A stretch of DNA of 50,109 bases from Shigella phage pSf-2 (KP085586), one strand, 5' to 3'; counted from the first letter of the stretch, positions 755 to 44,390 are shown. The notes: generated from the sequence alone by a model not told the origin. Program-made: numbers and translations.

Positions 755-1142
755 CGCCCTTACGAATTGAAAAATAAACCAGCAACAGACCAATGAGAAC
801 GAGGGTCCAACCAACTATAGGATCATACCAGTTTCCGGGCTTAGTCACAGTGATGCTTTCAGCGTTAACCGTGTTGGCCTGAATGGTTGACACTTCAATT
901 GACTTCTTCACGGAAGAGTCAACCTTTCCTACATTGGACTTTTCAACTTTAACATCTCGCTTATCTTCGGATTTTGCGGTTACTCCTGCTAATTGCTTTG
1001 TGTTCTCCTCCCCAATCTGTGCTGTAACTTCAGGCTTAGATCCTATTAAACCGCTCAGGGCAGATGCCGTCGAGCAACCTGATAGAGAAATAACACCAAC
1101 AGACACTACAATCGCAACGCACTTTTTCTTCAGTTTCATCAT
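738..1142 (-). CDS. unimolecular spanin-like lysis protein (OM lipoprotein with C-terminal TM anchor)
   Basis: N-terminal lipobox LSGC after signal peptide, C-terminal hydrophobic helix [13 protein letters not shown]; directly downstream of endolysin; architecture as in T1 u-spanin. Confidence 0.65.
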
Positions 1143-1627
1143 AATTCCTTAACGCAATACGCGTATTCTTCAGCGCGTCTGTTCTTGAGTCCTCTAGACA
1201 CTTCGCGCTTTTTGGTTTTTGGGTTGTAGTAGTATACCCATCGCCATAACTGATTGCACGCTTCCCTGTGCTTACCCTGATTTATTAGCTTAAGCATTGT
1301 AGAAGATCCGAACGCGCCAGTACCAACGTTGAAAGTAAAGCTATACAATGACGCGCGCATCGTTACAGGAATATCAACATTCACCTTTTTGTCTACGTAT
1401 CTCTGAGCAACGCCGATGTGTTTTATCAACAAAGCATCGCATTCTCGCTTAGTGTATTTCTTACCAGGTATGACGTCCGGCCCGGTTATTCCGCTGCATA
1501 CGGTAGGGACTCCGGCGATATCGTAATAAACCTCGTATTCTACACCTTCGATTCGTTCCAGTAGGGTAGGCGTCAACGTCAAAGCTGCCCCGATCGATGC
1601 GCCTATAACGTTATTTTTTAAACTCAT
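1139..1627 (-). CDS. endolysin, GH24 phage lysozyme (possible SAR type)
   Basis: Catalytic E-x8-D-x5-T pattern ([22 protein letters not shown]); hydrophobic N-terminus; ATGA overlap with spanin gene. Confidence 0.8.
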
Positions 1628-1842
1628 TATCTCCTCCTGATCTTAAGCGCCTTATTTAGATCGCCATCGTTTAACGCTTCCTGAATTGCCTTGCTATCGC
1701 GATACTTCCAGTACGCTCCCCAAGCGCCAAAAAGCAGAAAGCAAATGAATGTAGCGCCAGCAATATAAAGTTGACCTGTCGCCGCCCCCACCAACGAAGC
1801 ACCGCCCGTGCTTGACGTAGCTGCTGTTAAAAATTCTTTCAT
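1627..1842 (-). CDS. holin (start moved to internal ATG)
   Basis: 71 aa, one strong TM segment, charged C-terminus KALKIRRR; ggtgag SD 5 nt before ATG 1842; track start 1869 is TTG. Confidence 0.55.
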
Positions 1843-1979
1843 AATCTCACCATATATTTTTTTGAACAAGTGAGTCGATTTTAACCTTCAAATTTACTTG
1901 ATACAACGCAAAAAGGCCAGCATGTAAATCATGCCAGCCTGTAAGGTGATGAATGATATTGTTAATCTATCTCAATAAA

Positions 1980-13886: not shown

Positions 13887-14117
13887 ATGAAAAAGTTAAT
13901 CACCATTATCACCGCTGCATTCATCCTGACTGGTTGTGCTCAGAATCTTAAAAATGGCGACTGCGTTACTTACGCGTACGGCTCTTGCATGATGCGATTC
14001 GTTGATGGTAAAAAGGTTCCGGCTGGCGAAATTGACATGCGATTCAAAGGTCTGTCATCCGACGACGATCAGGGTAACTTTAGCGGCAAGGTATCAATCA
14101 AAACTAAAGAGTGGTAA
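13887..14117 (+). CDS. small lipoprotein, Cor-like superinfection-exclusion candidate
   Basis: Signal peptide with lipobox LTGC; 76 aa; lies next to J gene on opposite strand as cor does in FhuA-dependent phages. Confidence 0.55.
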   Translation: MKKLITIITAAFILTGCAQNLKNGDCVTYAYGSCMMRFVDGKKVPAGEIDMRFKGLSSDDDQGNFSGKVSIKTKEW

Positions 14118-14119
14118 TT

Positions 14120-15076
14120 ATGGGGCAAGGAATATACATAAATCTAAATGACGGTCGCCCGGCAATGGAGATAACTTCAGGGCTTCGCGCCCCGTCATGG
14201 TGCGGACCTATACAGGCTGACGGGGTTGATTCATCTGGATCGGTTTTTGATTTTGGTTTGCAAATGAGTCCAGGGTCTACTGCTTTTTGCCTTCCATCTC
14301 AGGCTATCTACATAGACGATATGGATTACATCCCGGAGGTGTATTATTTGACCAGTTTTCAGAAGGTCAATGATTCAACCGGACGAATAACGGTAGGTAA
14401 TTTTAACGGGCACGGTGGAAGGAGGATGAGATTTTATGGCAACTGTTACGAAATCCTCCCCGCTCAGGCTGGAAGTCAGGGGATACTTGTTAACGATTCA
14501 ACGAACTTCGCAGCGATACCGAATAACGCCAGATTGATGAGCGCTGCATTTGTTGGGGGTATTCAGGTTAACGGTCAGGCTCAGTTGCCAGTACAGGGCG
14601 TTCCTTTCGGTATGTGGGATAATCCAAACGTAACACTTGAATCTGACGGCAATACAATATGGTGCAGGGATGCAAACTATAACGGGATTGATGACGTTGG
14701 CGCGAGCGTATACGTTCAACTCGTAATATTTAATAACACCCCACCACCTCCCGGCCCTGGAATCACTATGAGCAATCCTGCTGGTCAGATCGTTTTCTCA
14801 AGCGTTCGACGTCCTTTTGTTCTCGGCGGGACTATGGCGATAAATGACGGGTGGCAGTGGTGCGGTGGATTTTTCCCAATACTGAGAACAGGTACGATAT
14901 GCAGAGTTACAGGTGGATATAATAACATTCGATACAAGGGCGTTTGCATGAGCGGCGGTAACGTGAGAAGCACACCCGGAACAAGGGTGGGTAACTATTC
15001 AACCCAAAGCGGAGCGCAATTCCCTTTCAATATAAACATTTCAATGCCAATTCCTTTCACTCCAAACATGTATTAA
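14120..15076 (+). CDS. hypothetical protein co-transcribed with lipoprotein (Gly/Asn-rich, PPPPGPG linker)
   Basis: ATG 14120 three nt after upstream TAA; track start 14111 is GTG; followed by bidirectional terminator. Confidence 0.55.
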   Translation: MGQGIYINLNDGRPAMEITSGLRAPSWCGPIQADGVDSSGSVFDFGLQMSPGSTAFCLPSQAIYIDDMDYIPEVYYLTSFQKVNDSTGRITVGNFNGHGGRRMRFYGNCYEILPAQAGSQGILVNDSTNFAAIPNNARLMSAAFVGGIQVNGQAQLPVQGVPFGMWDNPNVTLESDGNTIWCRDANYNGIDDVGASVYVQLVIFNNTPPPPGPGITMSNPAGQIVFSSVRRPFVLGGTMAINDGWQWCGGFFPILRTGTICRVTGGYNNIRYKGVCMSGGNVRSTPGTRVGNYSTQSGAQFPFNINISMPIPFTPNMY

Positions 15077-15102: not shown

Positions 15103-18100
15103 TTACCAGACACCAACAACCACTCGACCACCGTTAGGTAGGTTAACCGTGATCCCGTTATTGTTTATCTGAACTGTGTTATTTGTTCCGTTAAATGCAA
15201 ACTCTCCGTTATTTGCGTAAATTCTACCCCTCACTGTTGCATTCATGAATGAAGCGTCGCCATTCTTGTTTATGGCCCATCCATTATTCCCATCCCAATT
15301 GTTAGATTGAATCCAGTTTCCAATCATGGCATTAGTAATAAATCCATCCTTGATGATCGCGCTACTTAAAATAACCTGACCATTCTCAACAACAAAAGGA
15401 TATTGAGTCTGACCATTCATTCCTGTCATGATGGCAAATCGTGACGCCTCGAATAAGATTTGCGCCTTAACCACAGCGCCTGAACCAATCAGAGACATAG
15501 CCATACCAGCACTGTATTCTTGGCCGTTATACTTCAGACCGAGCTTGACTCCGTACATTGCACCAGTCGAATCCGCATTGCTCCACGAATCAAGTTTTTG
15601 AGAAAGTGCCGCCTCATTATTCCCAAGCCTCGCGCTTAATGACAAGTCAGCTTGCGTTCTCGCCTCAGTCTCGTTTGCTATAGCCTCTCTGATATCAGTC
15701 AAACTTGCCTGAATATCATCACCAATCTCTGCCCTGAGTTGGTCAATTTCACGCGATAGCGCTCCGGTTTCAGTTGCGATAACTTCACGCAATTCGCTAT
15801 TGCTTGCGCTAATCTGATCACCAAAACTTGCCCTTAACTGCTCAACTGCTGTTACTCGCGCCTCAGTCTCATCAGCAATTAGCTTCAGTGATTTGGTGTA
15901 CTCTGCTTTTCGTTTTCCGTTCTCCTTCTTCATGTAGATCGCGTCTTTGTCATTAGCTAGAGCGTTCTCAATTGCTGCCTCTGCGTTCGCTGCGTTCTGC
16001 GCCGCGTTGTCGGTTGCGTTATCAACAAGCCACTCGTAACCCGGCGAGTTTTCGATATCGACAGAAATCTCTCCAATGATATCGTCAACGTTTGTTGATG
16101 CCATGCCTCTGACAAAATCAGTCCACTGAGACGCGTTACCGATCCTGTCAACCGTCCTTACCCGATACCACACAATATTCCCTCCCGGCATCGGTGAGTG
16201 ATAATACTCATGCTGCGGATACGGAATCAAAGAAAGCAAACTTGCGTTATCCACTGTTCCATCCGGTGACTGCTGCAACTCCGTATAGGCCGTATCTCCA
16301 GAACCATCAGAGAACCCCCATTTTGTACGGATACCAAAAACAACATCATCCGTAGCTGTAAGGTTAATCGGTCGGCCCGGTTCACCCTGTTTACCCGTCA
16401 ACGTTGCCGCGACGATATTTGACCAGCCTGAAGTTGTGCCAGAACCAGCGACGGAGCGCACGCGAACCTGATAGTTGCCAGCGTAAATCCCTTCAACATA
16501 AACCTCCTTGTTTGCCGTCTGCGGGACGTTCTGCCAGTTGCCGTTATCCTTTCGCCACTGGACGTCATAGAAAACTGCGTACGGTACTTTATCCCAGCTA
16601 ACAATCATCGTTTCTACGCTCATCCCCTGGACGATTCGTGACTCTGAGGACACTTGCACGTTTTCCGGTCTAGGGATCTGATCTGGTTCAACGATGCTCG
16701 TCGGTCGGTCGTCGATATTAACTCCGTAATCAATCTCATCGTACTTGTTAGGATCGTACTCCACCGCCGTTATTTTGTAGGTAAATTCCTCATCATCATC
16801 GCCCTTGTCGATTTTTGTCACGACGTACTGCTGTAACGCAATGTCGGTGCGGTCGATAGCGAATACCGTGTTAGGCTTCACAGGAAAGCCAAAGCCAATG
16901 TTAACCTCTATAGTCTTACCATCCGCACTAACACTTGATATTGTGCGCTTCACGGGCTTGCCATCTGGCTTATTTACGATAATAAAGTCACCCGCGCGTG
17001 CATCCACCCGGAACGGCAAGAAAATCTGACTACCGGATACTTCGAGCAAGCGCCCTGATAGGTTCATCGTCAAGTTACTTGACCAGAAGTTATCAGCTAT
17101 TGCCACAACATCTCCGATTGTCGGGATCATACCCTCAAGTCCGGTAGCGAAGTTTACCGTAGTGCTGCGGAGGTTAGTTTTCAGAATCCATCTCCCGCGT
17201 CGGTTGGCCTCGCTTCGACGTGTGCAGCCGATCGCTGTAATGCTCGTTACGTTGTTCCCGAACCGTAGAGTAGCCTCACGATCGAATACTGGCTCAACGT
17301 CCTGCTGATACATGTTTTGCTCGTCGTCAAACATCACATTACACGTCGTGTACATGCTCTTTTCGCTTGCAAACGTGTAGGAGAAGTCACCATTAACCAC
17401 GTTGTCGTTAGTGAAGATGTACGCAGGCTCACGCGGCCTATCGATGATTACCGAAATGCTTTCGCCATTCCAAAAGCTCATACCTCGAAAGATTGAGCAA
17501 ATATCTCGAATAACCTTGTAAGCGTCAGTCTGAGACTGGATTATCACGTCGCAAAGGTATCGAGGTTCCGTCCCGCCCTTCCCATCAGGAACCATCTGAT
17601 CGCAATATTGCGCAGCCTCGTAGAGCGCCCATTTATCGACAGCGATACCAAGCTCTTTCTGATCCAAGCCGTAACGCTGATTAATCATCAGGTCATAAAG
17701 AACCCACGCAGGATTATTCGTCCATGCTTTTTTGAAAGTGCCATCCCAATTGCCGTTGTATGTTCGCGATTCTGGGTCGTAGTTCGACGGAACGCTTACA
17801 ATCTTCCAGCGCTTACGAATTGAGATCGTAGGTAACTGGTTTGGGAACATCTTCGAATCGAACTCTACGAAAAGAAGACCAGTCAGAGGATATCGGAATT
17901 TGGCATCAATGACCTCGGCATAGCTTCTTACCTGGATTGCATCAACGACATTCGAGTCATTGGAATCAGGCGTCTTTCGAACAACTCTGAATATTACCTG
18001 ATTGTTGAAGTTAGGCAGGTTTACGCGACGGCTTCGATCATAACCTGACATTGTTTTACCTTCGATTACGTCAGTAAGAACAGTCTCAAACGAACCGCCA

Positions 18101-18552
18101 TCAACCGCTTGCTGCACCTCGTACTCAACTCGAACGCCGTTTTTATCACCATTGCTTTCAATTCGTACACCTCGAGGCATAAACATTTTGATGCGTATTG
18201 CCGATAGTGTTTTATTGGTTACTGAGATCGTGTATGGGTTATCGGTAGTAACCTCACGATTTACAGTTACCTCACTTGAGCTATCTTCCATGCCCTTGAT
18301 GTATTCCTGCGTCTGAGTTCCCGGCCTGAACTCAGCCCTTACCCCTTCGAAGTTGAATGATCCATCCTCGTTTTGCACCGGAACTGAGTTAAACATCAAC
18401 TGCTTTAGGCTGAATGTTTCGTCAATTTCACCATCAGATACAGCTAACAGGATCTTGATTTTGTTGATTGAGATTAGATTGTCCTCCATCTCAACTGGGT
18501 TATGAGGCTTCTGTGACCCACCTTTAGATCCGCTTATCACTTTTTTAATCAT
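15103..18552 (-). CDS. host specificity / central tail fibre protein (lambda J-like)
   Basis: 1149 aa, last gene of I-K-L-M tail-tip cluster, FN3-like segment, beta-rich C-terminus. Confidence 0.85.
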   Translation of the reverse strand: MIKKVISGSKGGSQKPHNPVEMEDNLISINKIKILLAVSDGEIDETFSLKQLMFNSVPVQNEDGSFNFEGVRAEFRPGTQTQEYIKGMEDSSSEVTVNREVTTDNPYTISVTNKTLSAIRIKMFMPRGVRIESNGDKNGVRVEYEVQQAVDGGSFETVLTDVIEGKTMSGYDRSRRVNLPNFNNQVIFRVVRKTPDSNDSNVVDAIQVRSYAEVIDAKFRYPLTGLLFVEFDSKMFPNQLPTISIRKRWKIVSVPSNYDPESRTYNGNWDGTFKKAWTNNPAWVLYDLMINQRYGLDQKELGIAVDKWALYEAAQYCDQMVPDGKGGTEPRYLCDVIIQSQTDAYKVIRDICSIFRGMSFWNGESISVIIDRPREPAYIFTNDNVVNGDFSYTFASEKSMYTTCNVMFDDEQNMYQQDVEPVFDREATLRFGNNVTSITAIGCTRRSEANRRGRWILKTNLRSTTVNFATGLEGMIPTIGDVVAIADNFWSSNLTMNLSGRLLEVSGSQIFLPFRVDARAGDFIIVNKPDGKPVKRTISSVSADGKTIEVNIGFGFPVKPNTVFAIDRTDIALQQYVVTKIDKGDDDEEFTYKITAVEYDPNKYDEIDYGVNIDDRPTSIVEPDQIPRPENVQVSSESRIVQGMSVETMIVSWDKVPYAVFYDVQWRKDNGNWQNVPQTANKEVYVEGIYAGNYQVRVRSVAGSGTTSGWSNIVAATLTGKQGEPGRPINLTATDDVVFGIRTKWGFSDGSGDTAYTELQQSPDGTVDNASLLSLIPYPQHEYYHSPMPGGNIVWYRVRTVDRIGNASQWTDFVRGMASTNVDDIIGEISVDIENSPGYEWLVDNATDNAAQNAANAEAAIENALANDKDAIYMKKENGKRKAEYTKSLKLIADETEARVTAVEQLRASFGDQISASNSELREVIATETGALSREIDQLRAEIGDDIQASLTDIREAIANETEARTQADLSLSARLGNNEAALSQKLDSWSNADSTGAMYGVKLGLKYNGQEYSAGMAMSLIGSGAVVKAQILFEASRFAIMTGMNGQTQYPFVVENGQVILSSAIIKDGFITNAMIGNWIQSNNWDGNNGWAINKNGDASFMNATVRGRIYANNGEFAFNGTNNTVQINNNGITVNLPNGGRVVVGVW

Positions 18553-33065: not shown

Positions 33066-34634
33066 TTACCGCTTAACCATCCCGGCGAGCCGCTTCATTC
33101 TCTCGATAGGATCATCAATGGTCAGCAATTCGATGTTCGCCGCATCCATGAAGTTATCGACGATATCATCATGCGGATGTGTGTCATCGTAAGTGAAGGC
33201 GCTGTGTTCAGCGATAATTTCAGCAAGCATAGGGTGCTCTTCTGGCAGAACCACACGCCCGGCTTTAATAACTGGCTGAGCATCCATAGCTCGGGTAACT
33301 TTGTCTTTGTTACGCTGCAACGGAGTGATAGAGATCGGAGTCTTTTTCCTGAGGTTCTGGATAAGGCCCGTACCGCTCGCTTTATCTTCCACGTAGATTT
33401 TTCGAAGCACGCCCATTGATTTATTGTGTCTCCATGCCTGATTAACGAAAGCGGTAAATTGTTTCTCCATATCCGGCGCTTCCCACTTACCGCGAATGCC
33501 GTCAATAAAGTAAACCTTATCGTTCTTCTTACCCCACAAGCAAAAGACTGTGTAGTCGTTTAGCTCGCCTGTCTTCTGAGCGGTATCGGCAGTGATGAAA
33601 CGGTAGTCGTACTTACCCGGATCTGGTTCGTCAGCGTCAAGGCTGCTGCCGTAATAAGTCCACCATTCCGAGTTAAACACGGAGCCACCAAGCGCGATCG
33701 GCTTCTGCTGATACTGAGAGTCAAAGGTGTACTGGTCAGCTTCGCGAAGCGCTAACAGGTCATGTACACTCTCCTTACTGGGCCAGAACGAGTAATGCTT
33801 GACGCCATCAAGTTCGACATACTCAGACGATAAAACGTCGCGCTCGAAGTAAGGTTGTAACCAGTCAGGAAGCGTCTTTCCGTATTCTTCCGTAACCAGC
33901 GCCGGGATTGAGATCTGGTCAAACTCAATACCCATCCCGCCATTCATCATGAACCATGTTGAATCCTGCGCGTGCAGCCTCTGCTGAATCGCAATAATTG
34001 GCGTCTCGTTGTGCATACGACGCGATCGAATGGTGTTCTTCAGTAGCATATGAGTACGCTCACGCTTAACCTTTGAGAACATATCATCAGGCTTATCGAT
34101 ATCGTCGAGCATCACCATACCGGAGAATCCCGGCATCATGTAGCCACCACGCGAACCAGTAATACGACCGCCAGCCGCTGCGGATATTAGCTCAAACCAA
34201 ACCTTTCCATCGCTATTAAGGACTTGCATCTCTTCGTCCTTCGACGTGCCGAATTTGCAGGGCCATAATTCTTGGAACTCGTTGCTGCTGATAATCTCAC
34301 GCACGCGCTTACTGTTACGCTTAACCAGACTGTCGGCAAACGACACGTTAAGGTTTCGCACCTTCTTACACTTGAGCATCGCGTACACCGGGAGATGTAT
34401 TGAGAACACCTCGGTTTTACCGGAGCCTGGCGTAACGTTAAAGATAGTATTACCGCGTCGGCCTGCAATAATTTCCTCCACTTCGTGGCAGAGGTAAAGG
34501 TGATGCCAGTTAGGCTGGAACTGCTGAGCCTGCATAAGCTGGAACCAGATCCGAATCATTTTTTCGAAATTGGCCTCGCTCATTTTCTTGATCGCTAACT
34601 TCTGAGTTGCGTCGAGTTCTTCCCATTGAATCAT
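33066..34634 (-). CDS. terminase large subunit
   Basis: 522 aa; ATPase N-domain, acidic nuclease-type motifs in C-half; upstream of portal. Confidence 0.85.
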   Translation of the reverse strand: MIQWEELDATQKLAIKKMSEANFEKMIRIWFQLMQAQQFQPNWHHLYLCHEVEEIIAGRRGNTIFNVTPGSGKTEVFSIHLPVYAMLKCKKVRNLNVSFADSLVKRNSKRVREIISSNEFQELWPCKFGTSKDEEMQVLNSDGKVWFELISAAAGGRITGSRGGYMMPGFSGMVMLDDIDKPDDMFSKVKRERTHMLLKNTIRSRRMHNETPIIAIQQRLHAQDSTWFMMNGGMGIEFDQISIPALVTEEYGKTLPDWLQPYFERDVLSSEYVELDGVKHYSFWPSKESVHDLLALREADQYTFDSQYQQKPIALGGSVFNSEWWTYYGSSLDADEPDPGKYDYRFITADTAQKTGELNDYTVFCLWGKKNDKVYFIDGIRGKWEAPDMEKQFTAFVNQAWRHNKSMGVLRKIYVEDKASGTGLIQNLRKKTPISITPLQRNKDKVTRAMDAQPVIKAGRVVLPEEHPMLAEIIAEHSAFTYDDTHPHDDIVDNFMDAANIELLTIDDPIERMKRLAGMVKR

Positions 34635-34672: not shown

Positions 34673-35197
34673 TTAAAGCATGTCAAGAATACTGTTTACA
34701 GCCTCTTTCATTGCGTCCTCAGTGGTGGCGACTACTGTCGATGCGGAAGCTGCCGAGTTTTCGATATTGATTGAGGCTGGCTTATCGATTCCGAGATCCT
34801 TACCGATAAAGGAGGCGTTAATAACACCGTTGGCGGCAAGCTGGAATTTTTGCTCATTTATTACCGACTCAACAAACTCCATAACCTCACTGTATTCTTC
34901 CTCTCGCTTCCACTTAATGATTGCGGCCTCGCTTGCACCGATAAATAGTCGGTATCCGGTCCAGGTGAAGACGCGCGGCTTATGAACTAGCGATTCATAA
35001 ACGCCACCCTGAAAGCTGGCTGATTCTGACGCCTTGATTGCGTTGTCCTCGGCCCATTCGAAATACTTCACTGAAAGATCGAATAGTTGCTCTGGCGTCA
35101 TCGCTCTGTTTTTCGCGAGTACAGTGCCGAATTTTTTCTTGTATAGCTCTTTGAAATTACCTCCCTGGACTACGGGAGCGTTCTTAGGTTCACTCAT
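34673..35197 (-). CDS. terminase small subunit candidate (start moved to internal ATG)
   Basis: Upstream of TerL; aaagagga SD before ATG 35197. Confidence 0.5.
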   Translation of the reverse strand: MSEPKNAPVVQGGNFKELYKKKFGTVLAKNRAMTPEQLFDLSVKYFEWAEDNAIKASESASFQGGVYESLVHKPRVFTWTGYRLFIGASEAAIIKWKREEEYSEVMEFVESVINEQKFQLAANGVINASFIGKDLGIDKPASINIENSAASASTVVATTEDAMKEAVNSILDML

Positions 35198-35249
35198 AAA
35201 TAAATCCTCTTTGTTTAACATTTAGTGTTATTTTACCATATTGCAGGCA

Positions 35250-35273
35250 TAAAAAAACCCGCCGAAGCGGGTT
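35250..35273 (-). terminator. Rho-independent terminator upstream of terminase genes
   Basis: acccgc-cgaa-gcgggt hairpin, T7 on minus strand; extended -10 tggtaaaat follows. Confidence 0.5.
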
Positions 35274-35281
35274 AGTATTTA

Positions 35282-35509
35282 TCACGATAATAGTCGTTTA
35301 ATGCCTTTAGGGTGGGCCTGAGCTTTAGAGTAGCAGTGAGCAAGGTCGCCAGTCATTTCCCATTGGTCCTTCTTGGGCGAGTAGGTCAGCCATACACCAG
35401 TTTTATTCTTCGCGTCCAACGCAATTGCTGCCGCCGCAAGTGCGAAGCCAGAAAATAAACCAGCACCAAAAATAACGATACCAGCGATAATCCATAAAAA
35501 AATTTCCAT
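35282..35509 (-). CDS. small membrane protein
   Basis: N-terminal TM helix IFLWIIAGIVIFGAGLFSGFALAAAAIAL. Confidence 0.45.
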   Translation of the reverse strand: MEIFLWIIAGIVIFGAGLFSGFALAAAAIALDAKNKTGVWLTYSPKKDQWEMTGDLAHCYSKAQAHPKGIKRLLS

Positions 35510-35510
35510 G

Positions 35511-35696
35511 TTAGATCTCCTTAATTAATTCAATGTTTATTTTGTGAGTGTCAAGGTTTGCGCCGGAAAGTTTTTTTGCTTTCGCGATGGCTTCTGCCTG
35601 ACTGGTTGCCGATAATTCAGTCTCGAAAGATTGTTTGCATGATTGGCAAAACATACCCATCTTTCGAATGATTAATTTAACTTTGAATCGCTTCAT
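35511..35696 (-). CDS. hypothetical small protein
   Basis: 61-codon ORF. Confidence 0.4.
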   Translation of the reverse strand: MKRFKVKLIIRKMGMFCQSCKQSFETELSATSQAEAIAKAKKLSGANLDTHKINIELIKEI

Positions 35697-35838
35697 CTTC
35701 TTGCGCCTTAATCATAACGCCATCGATGCGACCAATAACGGCCTCTCCAGGATTTAACCGCTTTTTATAACGAGTTGTTTTGCCGTTGCGAGTTACTTTA
35801 ATTTCGATTTTGACTGATTCGTTTTTGATATTTTGCAT
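35677..35838 (-). CDS. hypothetical small protein (53 aa, not in ORF track)
   Basis: aagagg SD 8 nt before ATG; overlaps next gene start by 20 nt; coordinates +/-1. Confidence 0.3.
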   Translation of the reverse strand: MQNIKNESVKIEIKVTRNGKTTRYKKRLNPGEAVIGRIDGVMIKAQEDEAIQS

Positions 35839-36002
35839 TACGCAATCCTCTTGAATTGTTGCCGCTTACGGGTCTGCGGCGTTGCTTAACCACTATGCAA
35901 CCGAGCTTGTTAGCTGGAAGTGTGAGAATCGTCTCACGCGTTGCGCTTATTTGCGCCTCGTCTGTCTACGGGATTAATACTATCACCGCTCAGAGATTCA
36001 GG

Positions 36003-36206
36003 TCAATCATTAATTTCAAATTGGCCCTTAGTAATATCCTGCGGGTAGTCAATCTCATGAATATTTCCATCGTCTCCGTATACAAATACGAGTCTCTTTG
36101 CTTTACTTACTCTTTCAACGTCATACAAGCATCCAGCTGAGAAAGCATCACCATTGCGTGATGTAACACATCGAACCTGATCGCCTTTCTTCGGTAAATT
36201 GGCCAT
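36003..36206 (-). CDS. hypothetical protein
   Basis: 67-codon ORF in tightly coupled operon. Confidence 0.5.
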   Translation of the reverse strand: MANLPKKGDQVRCVTSRNGDAFSAGCLYDVERVSKAKRLVFVYGDDGNIHEIDYPQDITKGQFEIND

Positions 36207-36436
36207 TATTCGTAATCCCCTTCTTTGTTACCTACGCGCCCGGCAATGTACCCGGCAGTCCAGACAAATTTGTAGCGGTCGATGAGTAGCTCGACCTTTT
36301 TGTGGTGAGCCGAGATTACATCAATCATGATCTTGTCATTTTTACGATCTTCTTTTTTCATGCCGCTGACGAATTTATTCAGTTCCTTCGCCGCGCGCTT
36401 TACTACGTTCCATTCTGCTTCACTTAAACCGAACAT
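36206..36436 (-). CDS. hypothetical protein
   Basis: 76-codon ORF, overlapping stop/start with neighbours. Confidence 0.5.
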   Translation of the reverse strand: MFGLSEAEWNVVKRAAKELNKFVSGMKKEDRKNDKIMIDVISAHHKKVELLIDRYKFVWTAGYIAGRVGNKEGDYE

Positions 36437-36780
36437 TATTTATCACCTTTGAATGAAAAGCATACACCTAAAACCTGATTGCAAACTGATTCCATGTATC
36501 GCAACTGGTATTGAGCAACCTTTGAAGGACTTAATTCATCGGCAAATAAATCCTCAACATTTATTTCTTTTTTATGCTTGCGCTTCCATGCCTTGATAAT
36601 ATTCGGCGTAATGCGTTCGCTTTTCCATGCTGCGAACTCAGCTTGATTCGTCGACACAGGGGTTAGCTGTCTTTCGATCTGGTTAAGCAGCTCAGCGGTA
36701 GCGCCTTTGATGTGTAATTGATCGCCAATCGTATCAAGGATCTCACGCGCTTGTTCATCTGACAGGTTAATCGTGATCAT
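36436..36780 (-). CDS. hypothetical protein
   Basis: 114-codon ORF, ATGA overlap with upstream gene. Confidence 0.5.
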   Translation of the reverse strand: MITINLSDEQAREILDTIGDQLHIKGATAELLNQIERQLTPVSTNQAEFAAWKSERITPNIIKAWKRKHKKEINVEDLFADELSPSKVAQYQLRYMESVCNQVLGVCFSFKGDK

Positions 36781-36986
36781 GCCTCATCTCCTTCTTCTTC
36801 GATCGGGGTAAAAAACTGAGTGTTCACTGCCGGGTTATAATAAACTCCGTCGTCATAGTCGCTTTCTTTCACTTCAATAAAAGCGTCACAACCGTCATGC
36901 ATGAAATCACCATTATCAGTATGAACCAGTTCGAATACTTCAGAAGTTTTAGTGCAAGTGAAAAACTTATCAGTTGATACCATCAT
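36777..36986 (-). CDS. hypothetical acidic protein
   Basis: 69-codon ORF, first gene after motif/promoter at 37045. Confidence 0.5.
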   Translation of the reverse strand: MMVSTDKFFTCTKTSEVFELVHTDNGDFMHDGCDAFIEVKESDYDDGVYYNPAVNTQFFTPIEEEGDEA

Positions 36987-37044
36987 TTCGATTTTCTCTC
37001 TTCGTTGTCGATGAGGTAACTATATCAAATCACCCCACCGACGT

Positions 37045-37062
37045 TTTAGCAATTCGTGCTAT
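37045..37062 (-). promoter_or_regulatory. 18-bp dyad motif copy (tttagcaattcgtgctat)
   Basis: Overlaps TAG stop of kinase gene; minus strand: 22 nt then tatagt (37019-37024). Confidence 0.7.
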
Positions 37063-37631
37063 TTGTTGATGAACGTGGCGGCTATGTGCTGAGCGGTAAT
37101 TTCTGGATGACCTTCGACAGAAAAGAAGTCACACTCATGATAACCGTTGACACCGATCATATCGTCAAGATAGATATAGTCGCGGCTGTCGTTGTCAAAG
37201 TTGCAACCGTTGCGATGGATTCGACACAGCTTGACCTGGATGTCACCTTCAATCATCTGCAAGATCTCGTCTTTGAATCCACCGTCAGTAAATACCGAAA
37301 GTGAATGCGACTCTTTCACCTTGCTTTCCGCTCGCATACCGAAGAAGCGATTTCCGAACTGCGGCTTGATGACCTCCTCGCTAATCCAGATCATAAACTG
37401 GCGCGGGCTTTTACCGTTCAGGATTGATGCTGGCTCTTCTTTATATCGACGGTCCTCATACAAGAACATGAAATACTCGTAGTTAGCTTCACCCAGGATT
37501 GCCCGGGCAATCTCAAACATTGGCGCTTTGAAGCTGCGTAGCGCTACATGATCGTAAGTGTCAGCCAGGATGCATCCGATAGTGTCCTTTCCTGCGCCAG
37601 GCGCGCCGTTTAAAATGATAGCTGTTTTCAT
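37059..37631 (-). CDS. P-loop kinase (dNMP kinase / polynucleotide kinase-like)
   Basis: N-terminal Walker A MKTAIILNGAPGAGKDT resembling T4 dNMP kinase / Pnk kinase domain. Confidence 0.6.
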   Translation of the reverse strand: MKTAIILNGAPGAGKDTIGCILADTYDHVALRSFKAPMFEIARAILGEANYEYFMFLYEDRRYKEEPASILNGKSPRQFMIWISEEVIKPQFGNRFFGMRAESKVKESHSLSVFTDGGFKDEILQMIEGDIQVKLCRIHRNGCNFDNDSRDYIYLDDMIGVNGYHECDFFSVEGHPEITAQHIAATFINK

Positions 37632-37632
37632 G

Positions 37633-37743
37633 TTAGCATCTCCCTAAAAATAATTTTGCCATATTGATGATAGTGTGATTGATGATTAACAGGATGATAA
37701 CCGTCAATACCGGATGTGCTGCAATAAATTCGTACAGGTTCAT
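37633..37743 (-). CDS. small hydrophobic protein (36 aa, not in ORF track)
   Basis: ATGA overlap with HAD gene stop, TAA 1 nt before kinase ATG; TM segment PVLTVIILLII. Confidence 0.3.
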   Translation of the reverse strand: MNLYEFIAAHPVLTVIILLIINHTIINMAKLFLGRC

Positions 37744-38273
37744 TCATCTACCCCGTGAGATTTTAAATGATTGTGAACGTTATCGCCATAGTCAACTACA
37801 GCGTAAGTGGTTATCCCAAGCGATCGGAATAATGGAATAATTTGCGGCGAGTCATCCCAGGCCGCCAGAATGTTCTCAATACCGATAGCGCGCACCGCCT
37901 CCTCTTTCATCACCGTATCTTTCCGGTTATCGGTGTGCGGACGCATAATCAGGTAATCATATCGCGCACCGTAGCGCTTTAACCATAACTTTGATTCGTG
38001 ACGCACCTCATCACTACGTCCGGTTAAGATAATGACGTGATAACCCGCAGCAAATAATGAGTTCATCACCTCAATAGTGCTCTGAATAGGATCGTCATGA
38101 TTTGCTGCACGGTTAAATTCAGACCAACTTTCCGTAAGGTGCAAATCATTTGTCGGTAGCAAGTGGAGGCGCTTTGAGCCATCGCTAAGCGTTCCGTCAA
38201 AGTCAAAGATTGCTACGCGGCGCGCGCCGAGAAACAGGTTGATTGTCTGGCCCCAAATTGTGATTTTATCCAT
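37740..38273 (-). CDS. HAD-superfamily phosphatase (Pnk 3'-phosphatase / 5'-nucleotidase-like)
   Basis: DxDGT motif FDFDGTL near N-terminus; HAD-like spacing of later Asp residues. Confidence 0.6.
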   Translation of the reverse strand: MDKITIWGQTINLFLGARRVAIFDFDGTLSDGSKRLHLLPTNDLHLTESWSEFNRAANHDDPIQSTIEVMNSLFAAGYHVIILTGRSDEVRHESKLWLKRYGARYDYLIMRPHTDNRKDTVMKEEAVRAIGIENILAAWDDSPQIIPLFRSLGITTYAVVDYGDNVHNHLKSHGVDE

Positions 38274-38476
38274 TATGCTTTCTCCTGTACGCGAATGATT
38301 TTGATGGTTAATTCTTCTTCAACAATTTTGTAGCCGGATGATTCAAATTTACTCTCACGAGTCTGATTGCATGAATCAATAACGACCTGGCTATTCTGAA
38401 TATCGTCAGCCATGCCGATTAGCATGCTAACGATCTGCGTTCTCGTTTCGTTGCTCATTCCGGTAATAGTTTTCAT
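38273..38476 (-). CDS. hypothetical protein (start moved to internal ATG)
   Basis: acgaggaag SD before ATG 38476; track start 38518 lies inside promoter hairpin. Confidence 0.45.
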   Translation of the reverse strand: MKTITGMSNETRTQIVSMLIGMADDIQNSQVVIDSCNQTRESKFESSGYKIVEEELTIKIIRVQEKA

Positions 38477-38532
38477 GATCGCTTCCTCGTTTGTTGGCGT
38501 AGGGGAATCATAGCGCATTCCCCTTGATAGGT

Positions 38533-38550
38533 TTTAGCAATTCGTGCTAT
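38533..38550 (-). promoter_or_regulatory. 18-bp dyad motif copy (tttagcaattcgtgctat)
   Basis: Minus strand: 22 nt then tatgat inside 8-bp inverted repeat aggggaat/attcccct. Confidence 0.7.
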
Positions 38551-38752
38551 TCGTTTTAATGGTGATGCAAAAATAATTTTTTAAGCACGTCACCACGCGC
38601 GCCGAATCGACTTGTGGGAGCCTTAAAATTTCGTGGACCAATTGCACTGCCGAAACCTCAGATTTGTAGTAGTGTGCGATTCTGGAGCTATTTGGGAGCA
38701 TTCCTTCCACTGCATCGCGTGCTGCATCTTCTGCTGTCATGATGGTAGCCAT
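38534..38752 (-). CDS. hypothetical protein; C-terminus encoded by the motif
   Basis: 72-codon ORF ending ...NSTNC* across the motif. Confidence 0.35.
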   Translation of the reverse strand: MATIMTAEDAARDAVEGMLPNSSRIAHYYKSEVSAVQLVHEILRLPQVDSARVVTCLKNYFCITIKTNSTNC

Positions 38753-38855
38753 AAAACACCCTTAAGAGATAATGTCAGGATCAGTAGGCAAAATAGCAAC
38801 TCCTGAAATGATGGCGGCTCGTTATTCCAGTTAGAAAAGTCTGGCATAGTGTTTT

Positions 38856-38893
38856 CTCCAAAAGAAAGGGGAACCGTTCAGAGCCGATTCCCC
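38856..38893 (-). terminator. Rho-independent terminator
   Basis: ggggaa/ttcccc stem with 14-nt loop followed by T-rich run on minus strand. Confidence 0.45.
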
Positions 38894-38900
38894 ATTAGCA

Positions 38901-39539
38901 TTACATGATGAACAACAGCGAAATCGAAGCGACCAAGAGAACAAGAGCGATAGCCAAACCAGACAAATCTGCCTTCTCTTCAAACTTCAGCGCTGGCTTA
39001 CGGTCAACTTCCGACGGCTTGACGTTGTGGATCTTGTTAGCTGCAACATTGCCATTGACGCTGAAAGTGCGCTTGCGCTTCTTGCCGAACGTTGCGAACT
39101 TAGTGCCGCCGCTGTTCCAGCGAAGGCCTTCGCCATTGTGAGTTACGGTTGCAATTCGGTGGCGGCCCGTGTCATCGGTCAGCGCTACAGTGTGCTTTGC
39201 GTGCTCAGTAGGCACGTCGTAGATTTTGCCAACAGTAAATTTTTTGGTGTTATCGCTGATACATTCGAATTTCATAAATTTTACCTCTTTATTATGCAGT
39301 TGGTTGATTGCTTCGATTACGTCGTTAAATTTAACACCATCCACGATCCGATGAAAGATATATTTTGAACTACCGCCATACGGAAGGAAAATTTCCTGAT
39401 ATTCGCGACGACGGACAATGTTCACGTTACTACCGTGCTCATCAGTAATGATGAAGCTGTCATCATTTACGCGAACACCTTTGTAAGTTTTTCCCCACTT
39501 AAAACCAGATCCGCTACTTGATACGCATTCAAATTTCAT
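38901..39539 (-). CDS. tail-anchored membrane protein with two tandem copies of a small Cys-containing domain
   Basis: Repeats MKFECVSSSGSGFKWGKTYKGV and MKFECISDNTKKFTVGKIYDV; C-terminal TM LAIALVLLVASISLLFI. Confidence 0.55.
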   Translation of the reverse strand: MKFECVSSSGSGFKWGKTYKGVRVNDDSFIITDEHGSNVNIVRRREYQEIFLPYGGSSKYIFHRIVDGVKFNDVIEAINQLHNKEVKFMKFECISDNTKKFTVGKIYDVPTEHAKHTVALTDDTGRHRIATVTHNGEGLRWNSGGTKFATFGKKRKRTFSVNGNVAANKIHNVKPSEVDRKPALKFEEKADLSGLAIALVLLVASISLLFIM

Positions 39540-39823
39540 GGTCTAACCTTCCTGTAAGGTTTGATTGATAACATCACGTACTGCGTGAAGTAGCATTCTT
39601 GCTCGTCATACCCGCGATTGATGTATGGCGTCACATCAGTAACATCAGATACCCTGGCGTGAACTTCCCACCCGGTAAACTCATCGCGATCGAACTCGCA
39701 TAGCTCCAGGATATCGCCAGGCTGGAAGTTTCGGTCATTGACGCGGAACTCTGCCGTTTTGGTTCCGTTCATTACTCCGATGAAATGTACCGGGGCGATT
39801 TTTAACTTATGAGTTTTGCTCAT
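39536..39823 (-). CDS. ASCH/DUF3850-like PUA-fold protein
   Basis: N-terminal KLKIAPVHF...GTKTAEFRVNDRNFQPGDIL pattern. Confidence 0.5.
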   Translation of the reverse strand: MSKTHKLKIAPVHFIGVMNGTKTAEFRVNDRNFQPGDILELCEFDRDEFTGWEVHARVSDVTDVTPYINRGYDEQECYFTQYVMLSIKPYRKVRP

Positions 39824-40013
39824 CTTTCTTTACCTCGAATGTCACGTTCCAGAATTTATTGCCGCATGAATGATAGATTACGTCCTGAGACGTGAGTTCG
39901 TGCAATGCGTGCCCGATAATCTCCATTCTGTCGTTCGGTGTCAATCCGCGAAGTGATTCGCGTATGCGTGATGCCTTGTCGTAAATCTGCCACTGAGTGA
40001 GTCGTGTAGCCAT
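39807..40013 (-). CDS. hypothetical protein (start moved to internal ATG)
   Basis: Track start 40055 lies inside promoter hairpin; ATG 40013 follows aaccaatcagag leader. Confidence 0.4.
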   Translation of the reverse strand: MATRLTQWQIYDKASRIRESLRGLTPNDRMEIIGHALHELTSQDVIYHSCGNKFWNVTFEVKKDEQNS

Positions 40014-40079
40014 AGCTGATTTCTCTGATTGGTTGCCGTGCTTCAATAAGGCCACTATATCAAATGGCCTTGCGGAAGG

Positions 40080-40097
40080 TTTAGCAATTCGTGCTAT
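40080..40097 (-). promoter_or_regulatory. 18-bp dyad motif copy (tttagcaattcgtgctat)
   Basis: Minus strand: 22 nt then tatagt inside inverted repeat aaggcca/tggcctt. Confidence 0.7.
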
Positions 40098-40243
40098 CGT
40101 TTAACGCACATCGTTTTTACTTCATATCCGAACGGCTTATTCTCTGCAATTACTTCCCGAGCCTTGTTGCATGATTGCTCACTTTCCATGTATACGTGAT
40201 CCGGCCCAGTGCCCATTAAGATAATCAAAACCCATGCAGCCAT
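40094..40243 (-). CDS. small hydrophobic-N-terminus protein (49 aa, not in ORF track)
   Basis: gaggtg SD; TAATG overlap with upstream gene; TAG stop inside motif. Confidence 0.35.
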   Translation of the reverse strand: MAAWVLIILMGTGPDHVYMESEQSCNKAREVIAENKPFGYEVKTMCVKR

Positions 40244-40749
40244 TATTTCACCTCATAGCGTACAAGTGTTCCGCGCTTAATGCTGATTTCACCTGATACA
40301 GTCTTGTTCTTAAAGCCGCCGTAATGCAACAGGAGAATCACTACGTCATCGTGTACCTCAATAGTTTTAGGCGTTGCGGTAATGTCGGCCCAGGATTCGC
40401 TATCAAGCTGGACACCCTTTAGCGTCGCGCTCAATGGCATGTTCTCGATCTGAGTGCACTGTAGCATTGGCTTGATTTCTGGCTTTGCAGCTTTGAATAT
40501 TGAGCCTTCAATCTTCCAGCTATCATACAAGCTGTAAGCATTCTGATTGCCACTCATAATGTAGTGGTAGTCCTTATTTGGTGAATTTTCTTTATTCACT
40601 TCGTTATGTCTGGCTATAAACCATTCCAGCTTAAGCTGCGACACCTCATCGGTGGCCCACGTACCCTTATCTTCATCGGTGAACGTAATTTCACCACATC
40701 CCAGACTGATAAATTTGATCGGGAATTTGACGTCTTCTAATTTCAACAT
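40243..40749 (-). CDS. hypothetical protein
   Basis: 168-codon ORF, aagagga SD, first gene after promoter at 40806. Confidence 0.55.
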   Translation of the reverse strand: MLKLEDVKFPIKFISLGCGEITFTDEDKGTWATDEVSQLKLEWFIARHNEVNKENSPNKDYHYIMSGNQNAYSLYDSWKIEGSIFKAAKPEIKPMLQCTQIENMPLSATLKGVQLDSESWADITATPKTIEVHDDVVILLLHYGGFKNKTVSGEISIKRGTLVRYEVK

Positions 40750-40805
40750 AACTCTTTCCTCTTAGTTGTTGGCGTGGGGATTATACCAGTCAGGACAAAT
40801 CCCCT

Positions 40806-40823
40806 TTTAACAATTCGTGCTTA
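40806..40823 (-). promoter_or_regulatory. 18-bp dyad motif copy, variant (tttaacaattcgtgctta)
   Basis: Minus strand: 22 nt then consensus tataat inside inverted repeat ggggatt/aatcccc. Confidence 0.7.
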
Positions 40824-41309
40824 GTAAACTAACTCGCACTCAATATCGAACGGCTCGGCGTTACAGTGGAAGAAGCAAAGTGCCTCTTTATTCATCCCGC
40901 CGACAAATCCAACGGCTCGCAACTGCTCATCGTTAACGTATGCCAGGTTGCCAGTAATTCTTTCAAAGTCCACAATAACTGGGAACGTGCGGTTCTCATA
41001 ACCTGGTCGCATCGGGTAGCCGCCATTGTTGAGAAGTCGAACCTTGCGCGGCTTAGGATTTGCTTGGACTTCCCATCCGAAGAAGAACATCGTTCCGTCA
41101 TTCTCGTTAAGGTCAGCCGGACCAAATACAGGGCTAACCGAAAGTCCATAGTCCAGATCGTACACTCCAGCTTTAACCAGATCGTCAACCTTAACGCGGT
41201 AGCCTCCAGTGCTGGAATCGCATTTAACCGCATCAACCACGATAGGGTCTGCTTCCAGGTTTCGGGTAAAGCCTTTGTAACCGCCAGTGCAAAGTAATTT
41301 GATTTTCAT
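40821..41309 (-). CDS. hypothetical protein
   Basis: 162-codon ORF downstream of promoter at 41367. Confidence 0.55.
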   Translation of the reverse strand: MKIKLLCTGGYKGFTRNLEADPIVVDAVKCDSSTGGYRVKVDDLVKAGVYDLDYGLSVSPVFGPADLNENDGTMFFFGWEVQANPKPRKVRLLNNGGYPMRPGYENRTFPVIVDFERITGNLAYVNDEQLRAVGFVGGMNKEALCFFHCNAEPFDIECELVY

Positions 41310-41366
41310 GTTTGTATCCTCGTTCGTTGTCGATGGGGTTACTATATCGCAACCCCGATATTGTGT

Positions 41367-41384
41367 TTTAACAAAAAGTGCTAT
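41367..41384 (-). promoter_or_regulatory. 18-bp dyad motif copy (tttaacaaaaagtgctat)
   Basis: Overlaps TAG stop of 41381..41572; minus strand: 22 nt then tatagt. Confidence 0.7.
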
Positions 41385-41572
41385 TCTTTAATCTCGAAGC
41401 AATCAGTATCTTCGTCGAATATCCAGGGATCGCCATTATCATCAAGCAATGAGATATTCCCGAAGCTGGTTAGTGACGCGTTATAAGGCTTGTTAACGGT
41501 AAAGCACCCTTTAACTTCCTCATCATCACTGCCTTTGAATACTGCAATCATTTGGTGCATAAAATCAGCCAT
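41381..41572 (-). CDS. hypothetical acidic small protein
   Basis: 63-codon ORF, aggat SD. Confidence 0.45.
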   Translation of the reverse strand: MADFMHQMIAVFKGSDDEEVKGCFTVNKPYNASLTSFGNISLLDDNGDPWIFDEDTDCFEIKE

Positions 41573-41581
41573 TGTTAAATC

Positions 41582-41752
41582 CTATTCGCAAGTAATTTCA
41601 TTTGATGTGATTGGTAGCAATACGTTGCCGACCATCATGAACGTAGTAACCTGGTTTCCGGTTTCATGGCATCGCTCTTTTACCTCTCCACAACCGGACA
41701 CCACAAGGATAGCCAGGGCGACCGCCGCCATCATGCAAATAAGAATACGCAT
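41582..41752 (-). CDS. small lipoprotein candidate (start moved to internal ATG)
   Basis: Signal peptide with lipobox VVSGC; track start 41773 is GTG; TGATG coupling with upstream small ORF. Confidence 0.4.
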   Translation of the reverse strand: MRILICMMAAVALAILVVSGCGEVKERCHETGNQVTTFMMVGNVLLPITSNEITCE

Positions 41753-41862
41753 CATTCGAACGCTCCAGCACACAGTAGTAACATGATTACGATCCCGTCA
41801 ATGGCATGACCCATGCAGAAGAACCAGACGGCAGACCATAAGGCAATTGTATTGAAGTTCAT
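41752..41862 (-). CDS. small hydrophobic protein (36 aa, not in ORF track)
   Basis: gaggtg SD, ATGA overlap with upstream gene; hydrophobic LWSAVWFFCMG...IVIMLLLCAGA. Confidence 0.3.
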   Translation of the reverse strand: MNFNTIALWSAVWFFCMGHAIDGIVIMLLLCAGAFE

Positions 41863-42086
41863 TTCAGCACCTCGATCTTGTTGTCACCGATTGAGTTTTC
41901 TACTACCGATTGCGGGTCATCGCCAGGAACGCGCATGTAGAAATTACTAACCGCCGTGAAGTTCCATTGACCGCGCCACTTGAAATAGACTCCGTGCTTT
42001 GCGCCCATGGCGTAGTGAGTTGATTTTGCCGGGATCATGTGCCCGTTGACTCGGGTTAGTTGAGTTAGGTTGCTGTAACGTGGCAT
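41859..42086 (-). CDS. hypothetical protein
   Basis: 75-codon ORF in coupled operon. Confidence 0.5.
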   Translation of the reverse strand: MPRYSNLTQLTRVNGHMIPAKSTHYAMGAKHGVYFKWRGQWNFTAVSNFYMRVPGDDPQSVVENSIGDNKIEVLK

Positions 42087-42873: not shown

Positions 42874-43068
42874 TTAAGCCTCTGCAAAGTAAGTGTTAAA
42901 GCCTTTGAGTTTGTAGTCGCTACCTACGCGCACAACATTCCAGGTAAGGCCAGAGTGATACGCCACCATATCTTCCAGGTCGATTGTGATTTCAGTTCCT
43001 TTCTTGAACAGACCCTTTTCATGGGTTGAGTCCCGCTGAACAACCACTACGTCAATTTGCGTTTCCAT
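42874..43068 (-). CDS. hypothetical protein (start moved to internal ATG)
   Basis: agagga SD before ATG 43068; track start 43134 lies inside the motif. Confidence 0.45.
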   Translation of the reverse strand: METQIDVVVVQRDSTHEKGLFKKGTEITIDLEDMVAYHSGLTWNVVRVGSDYKLKGFNTYFAEA

Positions 43069-43126
43069 CTTTGTTTCCTCTGTATCGTTTCGATGATAAG
43101 ATAATACCCGATCCGCTAGACCGGGC

Positions 43127-43144
43127 TTTAACAAAAAGTGCTAT
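43127..43144 (-). promoter_or_regulatory. 18-bp dyad motif copy (tttaacaaaaagtgctat)
   Basis: Overlaps TAG stop of 43141..43461; minus strand: 22 nt then tattat. Confidence 0.7.
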
Positions 43145-44047: not shown

Positions 44048-44076
44048 ATTGTGACATCTCGATGTAGAGCTGTCAA
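44048..44076 (-). promoter_or_regulatory. sigma70-like promoter candidate (TTGACA-17-CACAAT) for leftward early operon
   Basis: Consensus -35 with 17-bp spacer, 58 nt upstream of ATG 43989; TGTCA/TGACA inverted repeats nearby. Confidence 0.4.
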
Positions 44077-44129
44077 TGCCTGCGAGCCAATTTTAAGCCG
44101 TGTAACATTTGTCTAGCTGTCTATAGCCA

Positions 44130-44390
44130 CTATAGAAATATATGGCTCTCAAAAAAAGTACTGTATATATAAACACTCAGATAGAAATATGCCAACAGTA
44201 CGCTAGACAATGTAAGACAGCTATACACAACTATTACAATATAATTATCTATATATATAAATAAAAAAAACACTATATATATTATATATATACATATATC
44301 TATATGTATATTGTGAGGCGTCACAGTGTGTATTTTTGTCACAAGTGCGATTCTAGACAAATATTACAGTCGTGACAAGTTAAAGTGTAA
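44130..44390. repeat. AT-rich tract with (TA)n/ATATA runs and TAGACA / GTCACAAG repeats; candidate origin or early control region
   Basis: Long ATATATA-type tracts at 44160-44320; repeated ctagacaa, gtcacaag/gtgacaag words. Confidence 0.45.

Follow-up and report, generated by a model that had tools for sequence, protein, structure and literature searches.

The described systems closest to the genes analyzed here are the Cor/Llp exclusion lipoproteins of phages T1, phi80 and T5 (PF24052). Proteins of the Cor type act on the phage receptor from its periplasmic side and thereby block it, and in T1 the exclusion lipoprotein Cor occurs together with membrane proteins, a precedent that counts in favor of the interpretation developed below (PMC13164509). 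For KanT1, a close relative that was analyzed in 2026, DefenseFinder detected no anti-defence genes, Cor was treated as the only known exclusion function, and all those counterparts of the present genes that could be located were listed as hypothetical (PMC13164509). About half of the genes of T1-like phages have no known function, and most genes of the block upstream of the terminase, including those discussed here, have no assigned function (PMC13164509, PMC11447400); in the re-annotation of phage TLS, the presumptive early products that degrade the host genome could not be identified (PMC11447400). Here we analyze this block in Shigella phage pSf-2 (KP085586), within a window, that is, the whole stretch of DNA under analysis, of 50,109 nucleotides (nt), to which all coordinates refer unless another record is named. 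We concentrate on five small open reading frames (ORFs), denoted A to E, which had been proposed from the sequence alone to form a cluster of very small membrane proteins and lipoproteins of the kind that often serves in host takeover, in superinfection exclusion or in the inhibition of defences; for these candidates, such roles are a plausible but no more than generic expectation.

Two other groups of small membrane proteins provide architectural parallels. The T4 Imm and HK97 gp15 proteins, which are made during infection and block incoming phage DNA, are small and consist of one or two transmembrane (TM) segments with a short soluble domain; A (75 amino acids, aa) and B (36 aa) share this general architecture, but there is no detectable homology and B is far smaller. 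AcrZ, MgrB, KdpF and CydX are single-TM peptides of 30 to 50 aa that bind a larger membrane complex; B, E and another 36-aa peptide of the block, F36 (described below), are similar to these in size and in possessing specifically conserved residues but are phage-encoded and show no homology to them.

Comparison with relatives shows, at the level of sequence conservation, that A to E are genuine genes, situated in the leftward block upstream of the terminase in a T1-like phage. All five are present on the minus strand, namely A at 35282..35509, B at 37633..37743, C (49 aa) at 40094..40243, D (57 aa) at 41582..41755 and E (36 aa) at 41752..41862, which agrees with the sequence-only reading except for the start of D, placed there at 41752, 3 nt away from the start favored below. 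We assembled early regions for 15 relatives and set two of these aside, the frameshifted record L003 (MK335533.1, Shigella phage vB_SsoS_008), which was left out of the statistics, and L005, which represents another lineage, to obtain a panel of 13 Tunavirus genomes. Intact ORFs with conserved starts and stops were found for A, D and E in all 13 genomes and for B and C in 11 of the 13. The ratios of nonsynonymous to synonymous polymorphism (pN/pS), calculated from pairwise Nei-Gojobori-style counts, were 0.27, 0.13, 0.15, 0.21 and 0.10 for A to E, respectively, compared to 1.15-4.25 in the two other frames of the same alignments, which served as a control. Variable sites are concentrated at the third codon position (p from 0.016 for B down to 2e-5 for E), with counts at the three positions of 4/2/10 in B and 8/3/24 in E.

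ATGA overlaps join the stop codon of g75, the gene upstream of E, to the start of E, the stop of E to the start of D, and the stop of the polynucleotide kinase/phosphatase gene (pnk) to the start of B; a TAATG joins g168 to C; and TAA-c-ATG junctions connect B to the following kinase gene and g61 to A, so that the coupling proposed earlier for several of these genes holds. A, C, D and E each have a Shine-Dalgarno motif upstream. As the criterion for a TM segment, we required about 19 or more hydrophobic residues with a Kyte-Doolittle mean above 1.6; the maxima over 19 residues (KD19) are 2.26 for A, 2.22 for B, 1.17 for C, 2.75 for D and 2.08 for E, and the segments of A, B and E, all three originally described as TM or hydrophobic, exceed this value and are kept in orthologs. 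Among the 56 ORFs of 30 aa or more in the region that are not genes, only 2 reach equal hydrophobicity, compared to 6 of 23 real genes (Fisher p = 0.0065); one of these two decoys is intact in a single panel genome and has a pN/pS of 3.8, and the other has no conserved counterpart. Public records of relatives already carry these genes as hypothetical proteins, with B and E left unannotated in many of them. As a separate observation, frameshifts and premature stops interrupt many early genes of the L003 record that are conserved elsewhere, and the ORFs annotated in it are broken up; the record looks like an assembly rich in errors.

The five genes do not, judging from their arrangement, form one machine; only g75, E and D make up a coupled module. 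The first of these genes (41859..42086, minus strand) encodes a soluble 75-aa protein of the DUF7274 family (PF23939, E = 3.2e-40), and the ATGA overlaps chain it to E and D in the only tight coupled module of the set. The word 'cluster' in the sequence-only reading is too strong for this layout: the five ORFs are interspersed with others in a stretch of about 6.6 kb that holds about 28 genes, and E and D are the only two of them that are adjacent.

The D gene, an ortholog of T1p72, most likely starts at 41755 (MMRIL..., 57 aa), because this ATG overlaps the stop codon of E, relatives annotate 174-nt genes, and the second methionine is not conserved (MIRIL in the orthologs P0004 and P0010). 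When the block was scanned with a PROSITE-style lipobox pattern ([LVI][ASTVI][GAS]-C within the first 15 to 35 residues, accompanied by a basic residue and a hydrophobic core), D was the only match among 29 proteins: M-M-R3 is followed by the hydrophobic core ILICMMAAVALAILV and by V-S-G-C22, within the VVSG-C motif on which the original lipoprotein assignment was based. Cys22 is present in 13 of the 13 panel genomes and is nearly invariant over 21 aligned clusters; the exceptions to the lipobox among the D clusters are P0021, which lacks the Cys, SH6, with V at position -1, and ISF001, with E at position -3. We infer that D is a lipoprotein carrying a classical signal, and its lipidation is predicted: the protein would be exported by the Sec route, acquire a lipid on Cys22 and be cleaved by signal peptidase II.

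An AlphaFold2 model of D built from a 21-sequence alignment consists of a signal helix (residues 2-19), a loose linker and a beta-hairpin (29-42/45-56), the distal half of which (VTTFMMVGNVLLPI) is hydrophobic. Two further cysteines, C29 and C56, are nearly invariant and are located at the hairpin ends, so that a disulfide between them would staple the hairpin. The mature part comprises 36 aa with a single Pro. The predicted product is accordingly a lipid-tethered periplasmic beta-hairpin of 36 aa with a C29-C56 disulfide and a hydrophobic tip. In the D protein of IME18 (L013), Asp directly follows the lipobox Cys, where most orthologs contain Gly. Asp after the lipidated Cys is the classical residue for inner-membrane retention.

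The E gene encodes a 36-aa peptide (phrog_25570) that contains about 31 consecutive apolar residues and no Lys or Arg; along with F36, it would be embedded in the bilayer. At codon 22 (41797..41799), Asp22 is unique to pSf-2, the other panel genomes having Val (Val22 followed by Arg23 in L009). D and E were detected in 53 and 54, respectively, of 50,697 phage records, all of these from Tunavirus phages of Escherichia or Shigella, and the two genes lie directly side by side in every case. The spread of D is similarly narrow on a larger scale, with 22 clusters among 5.8 billion clustered proteins, and an exhaustive search with a HMMER profile of the D family against 1.84 billion representatives retrieved only the family itself (4 representatives). 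A metagenomic T1-like contig (Logan DRR001793, L020 1609..2014) shows a different arrangement, in which a D homolog comes immediately after the DUF7274 gene and there is no E gene. This homolog is 56% identical to D and has lost the lipobox Cys (IIIILSYDD...), but its N-terminus is still hydrophobic and both cysteines of the pair are retained. The conserved core of D is accordingly a membrane tether joined to a small hairpin with two Cys, and it may be that D takes the lipoprotein form where E is present. In the T1 record MK213796.1 (L004 1..2800), the annotated 2.8-kb terminal repeat spans the orthologs of g75, E and D, which would therefore sit at both ends of the virion DNA of the first headful.

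A, the ortholog of T1p55 (phrog_5976), is the final gene of the block, ahead of the terminator and TerS, and is preceded by the Shine-Dalgarno sequence AAGGAG. This predicted single-pass membrane protein combines an acidic N-terminus (E2), a TM segment at about residues 3-31 and a K-rich C-terminal domain of about 45 residues in which eight K/R face four D/E. Homologs were found in 67 of the phage records and form 17 clusters among the 5.8 billion proteins; those of Badaguanvirus IME347 and Sertoctavirus SRT8 are 42-51% identical and occupy the same slot directly upstream of TerS. The match of A to DUF7299 (PF23973; 19.7 bits, E = 9.4e-4) is below the Pfam gathering threshold of 27 bits, and a sub-threshold match was obtained for 17 of 17 members of the A family (best E = 1.8e-6), with a precomputed PF23973 hit available for the ortholog P0046. 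A is likely to be a distant relative of DUF7299, a family without an assigned function, and, by its distribution, it is a core gene of the genus, as are D and E.

B is a predicted single-TM peptide encoded between pnk and a dNMP-kinase-like gene, with E5 ahead of the hydrophobic segment and K30 and R35 behind it. By the positive-inside rule, the acidic N-termini and K/R-rich C-termini of A and B suggest an N-out/C-in topology. Both proteins would then be inserted in the inner membrane in this orientation, with the 45-aa domain of A in the cytoplasm. B is restricted to close relatives, and an HNH endonuclease takes its place and that of the 3' end of pnk in T1, JMPW2 and KanT1. The exchanged allele (37633..37800, minus strand) covers B and the last ~64 nt of pnk, and its HNH counterparts are located at L004 5465..5959 and L015 4431..4925. 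A tblastn search with the 36-aa B sequence, a short low-complexity query, under-reports the gene (6 records), whereas nucleotide matching recovers it in 11 of the 13 panel genomes.

C stands apart from the other four and is best read, on the model and the alignment, as a soluble mini-protein that would reside in the cytoplasm. It contains two conserved cysteines, and the AlphaFold2 model has a compact beta-beta-alpha-beta fold (predicted local distance difference test score, pLDDT, 87.5) in which residues 4-10 form a strand. The sequence-only reading had described the N-terminus of C as signal-like, and a Sec signal peptide was considered and discarded: there is no K/R before residue 27 and hence no basic n-region, the KD19 of 1.17 is low, and the N-terminal strand is conserved. 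The motif MxxWVLIILM is kept in homologs from Tunavirinae, Tempevirinae and Braunvirinae, and W4, L6, I8, C25 and C46 are invariant. C was found in 90 phage records from these three subfamilies and in 8 clusters among the 5.8 billion proteins, and is absent in SA30RD and Shfl1. A Foldseek search with the C model against PDB and BFVD returned no significant or informative neighbour. By their distribution, B and C are dispensable accessory genes.

All five genes are, by every search made, conserved orphans that are already present in databases without names, with D and E restricted to Tunavirus. Scans of B, C, D and E against Pfam, NCBIfam and PADLOC gave nothing beyond chance-level matches, the PHROG families of the candidates are all annotated as 'unknown function', and a word-indexed search of 5.8 billion proteins with D, C and A recovered only close Tunavirus relatives, the sole name among them being an automatic 'Lipoprotein'. 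In the literature that we searched, no early gene of T1 or TLS has been given a function, and nothing specific on T1 transcriptomes or membrane physiology turned up. The dbAPIS call of 'SieA' in KanT1 was considered as a possible match to one of the candidates and was found to correspond instead to a soluble 76-aa gene at 36206..36436.

D resembles Cor/Llp in several respects: both are small lipoproteins with a classical lipobox and extra Cys residues in a short mature domain, and both are accompanied by genes for small membrane proteins. However, pSf-2 encodes its own Cor-type lipoprotein (13887..14117, plus strand; PF24052, E = 1.7e-24; it also matches, weakly, the PHROG 'Cor superinfection exclusion protein'), a 76-aa precursor (MKKLITIITAAFILTGC...) with ~59 aa after Cys17 compared to the 36 aa of mature D. 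The Cor gene overlaps that of a 321-aa DUF6453 protein (14111..15076, plus strand; E = 2.9e-126), and the pair is located just past the end of the tail-tip J-like gene (15103..18552, minus strand), on the opposite strand, whereas D is found in the block upstream of the terminase, ~23 kb away from the J-like gene. D matched no Pfam family at E <= 1, BLASTP against the genome's own Cor produced no alignment, and a Foldseek search of the D model against PDB gave no match; given this lack of profile, sequence and fold matches and the different location, D was rejected as a Cor paralog. The presence of Cor, together with a complete lysis cassette (738..1869) that consists of a unimolecular spanin (u-spanin) with a lipobox and a C-terminal TM segment (738..1142), an endolysin of the signal-anchor-release (SAR) type (1139..1627) and a holin (1627..1869), indicates that the D-E pair is neither Cor nor a spanin.

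We propose that the membrane-associated candidates are early-made accessory factors acting on the host envelope. The structural component of this proposal, that they are real small envelope proteins, is highly probable; the functional component is a prediction that we offer tentatively, judging it to fall somewhat short of an even chance; and the explanation as a whole, blending the two, is finely poised. Under this proposal, A and B would bind host complexes in the inner membrane, as small bacterial membrane regulators do, and E-D would constitute a second, Cor-independent system that alters an outer-membrane or periplasmic target, with the outcome that the entry of competing or sibling phage DNA is blocked or the infected envelope is stabilised. 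In favor of the proposal count, besides the coding evidence, the coupling, the hydrophobicity, the lipobox and Cys-pair conservation and the structure models set out above, the constant adjacency of E and D, the accessory status of B and C and the recurrence of a small lipoprotein in three other Drexlerviridae lineages, described below.

Several observations weigh against the proposal. None of the five proteins matches any exclusion, takeover, spanin or defence model in Pfam, NCBIfam, PADLOC or PHROGs, and possession of its own Cor lessens the need of this phage for a second exclusion lipoprotein. The model of D is of moderate confidence (pLDDT 70.9, predicted TM-score 0.30) and comes from a shallow alignment. 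The residue that follows the lipobox Cys in D orthologs is mostly G, with V, S or D in some, and this variability makes sorting to the outer versus the inner membrane unpredictable. The link between the loss of E and the loss of the lipobox comes from a single metagenomic contig. Finally, a promoter scan did no better than chance, with 19 matches against 19.7 expected from shuffled sequence, so that the term 'early' derives from position only.

The alternative that survives best, albeit as a rather unlikely one, is that B, E, F36 and perhaps A are takeover or timing toxins that perturb or depolarise the inner membrane and so shut down host functions or tune the timing of lysis, with type I toxin peptides and holin/antiholin-like factors as the models. 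Their size (36-75 aa), their single hydrophobic segment and, in E, the complete lack of K/R would suit such a role, as would their location in a presumed early block. Moreover, T-phage infections cause transient early membrane leakage. These proteins, however, show no similarity to known toxins or holins, the phage carries the complete holin, SAR-endolysin and u-spanin cassette elsewhere, and the strong purifying selection on specific residues, in B on polar ones too, is better suited to specific binding than to generic damage of the membrane.

Somewhat less probable is that the candidates are membrane-level anti-defence factors that neutralise abortive-infection and other defence systems of E. 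coli. The block holds other host-interaction genes, such as the polynucleotide kinase/phosphatase and a Gp54 homolog (PMC11578894), and the variable presence of B and C is typical of accessory counter-defence genes. Conversely, A, D and E are not patchy but core to the genus, no match to known anti-defence families was found, and DefenseFinder came up empty in KanT1 (PMC13164509).

A more specific version of the envelope proposal, which we consider improbable, is that g75-E-D is an unrecognised early envelope system in which the D hairpin, with the help of E, docks by strand addition onto a beta-rich host machine; a TonB-dependent receptor or a component of Lpt or Bam would be the candidate targets, and the envelope would be closed to competitors independently of Cor. 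A possible parallel is provided by DUF4884-like lipoproteins (phrog_6360) of the distant Drexlerviridae BananaBelafonte, JeanPiccard and tonijn (L005 10210..10485, minus strand; L017 475..738, plus strand; L016 701..973, plus strand), which are ~90 aa long and contain the motif RLFTVDGCTxYRF...Y.T.C.G. Like D, these proteins are small, are encoded in the equivalent block and are coupled by 4 nt to the upstream gene, but they are unrelated to D in sequence and are absent from pSf-2 and from all Tunavirus loci examined. Their occurrence weakly suggests that this gene block repeatedly calls for a small lipoprotein. If strand docking by D were correct, the DUF4884-like lipoproteins would be functional analogues, and the Drexlerviridae would possess a previously undescribed, family-wide early envelope step.

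The possibility that some of the ORFs, B and E in particular, are non-genic, representing conserved spacers, ribosome-loading sequences or target DNA of homing endonucleases, is very remote. Many records lack an annotation of B or E, the HNH insertion in T1 and JMPW2 occurs exactly at B, and the DNA of B is 93-98% conserved compared to 83-87% in the flanking pnk, an excess that may reflect homing-site constraints. Against this, in-frame pN/pS values are below those of the other frames (0.13 for B and 0.10 for E versus 1.3-4.3), and the third-position bias and the conservation of start and stop codons described above apply to both genes. Weakest of all is a role of E-D in lysis, as a two-part spanin or a spanin/lysis regulator: although the membrane-protein gene E lies directly upstream of and overlaps the small lipoprotein gene D, superficially like Rz/Rz1, E with its 36 almost uniformly hydrophobic residues has no periplasmic domain, the mature part of D contains one Pro only, the L020 homolog of D has neither lipobox nor E, and the phage's own lysis cassette with its u-spanin is 40 kb away.

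With the envelope proposal as the preferred interpretation, the analysis yields a short list of envelope-targeted early candidates, namely the core genes A, D and E, along with B, F36 and an anchored 212-aa protein; C is removed as a false lead, and E-D is flagged as the most testable unit. What was found are conserved orphan genes that already stand unnamed in dozens of database records, and their kind, small phage envelope proteins, is known. Should D prove to be a second lipoprotein of exclusion or envelope remodelling, it would matter for phage competition and for the design of E. coli/Shigella cocktails and would provide a source of small envelope-binding peptides.

The 6.9-kb stretch around these genes has matches in 305 phage records, the best of which, at ~90% nucleotide identity, come from coliphages and Shigella phages of the genus Tunavirus (T1-like, Drexlerviridae), namely AV106, IME18, LeonhardEuler, Shfl1 and T1. 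The minus strand carries nearly every gene between 15.1 and 44.0 kb, and the leftward orientation described in the sequence-only reading is borne out. The block begins at an AT-rich divergent intergenic zone at ~44.0-44.4 kb (GC content 0.38 at 44-45 kb), where the best minus-strand sigma-70-like matches are located (44378..44048), and is closed after A by an intrinsic terminator (AACCCGCTTCGGCGGGTT followed by a T-run; 35273..35256, minus strand) just before TerS (34673..35221), beyond which lies TerL (33066..34634). Besides the polynucleotide kinase/phosphatase, the block encodes a P-loop kinase, a protein of the DUF3850 family and a strong homolog of Gp54, a gene content that marks it as rich in host-interaction functions. 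The Gp54-family ORF (86 aa; 42874..43134, minus strand) matches PF25180, 'Phage antiviral trigger protein Gp54', with E = 1.2e-35; the 66-aa Gp54 of Bas11 is a direct activator of the CapRel-SJ46 defence (PMC11578894). This ORF lies just outside the region that contains A to E, in the same leftward block, and its actual start is probably the internal Met23 (METQIDV...).

Two additional membrane genes of the block were not listed in the sequence-only reading. F36 (38737..38847, minus strand) encodes 36 aa with a hydrophobic C-terminal half (KD19 2.10), is intact in 13 of the 13 panel genomes with a pN/pS of 0.21, and is annotated in T1, LeonhardEuler and AV106. The other gene (38901..39539, minus strand; phrog_10580) encodes a 212-aa protein with two internal repeats, in which the last ~20 residues form a predicted TM anchor (KD19 2.78 at residue 194). 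Both repeats begin with MKFEC, and the protein shows weak matches to DUF7244 (SH3 clan) and phrog_14592-like domains. The 63-aa protein encoded beside D (41381..41572, minus strand) has a phrog_14592-like domain in common with the 212-aa protein, so that small SH3-like modules seem to recur in the block.

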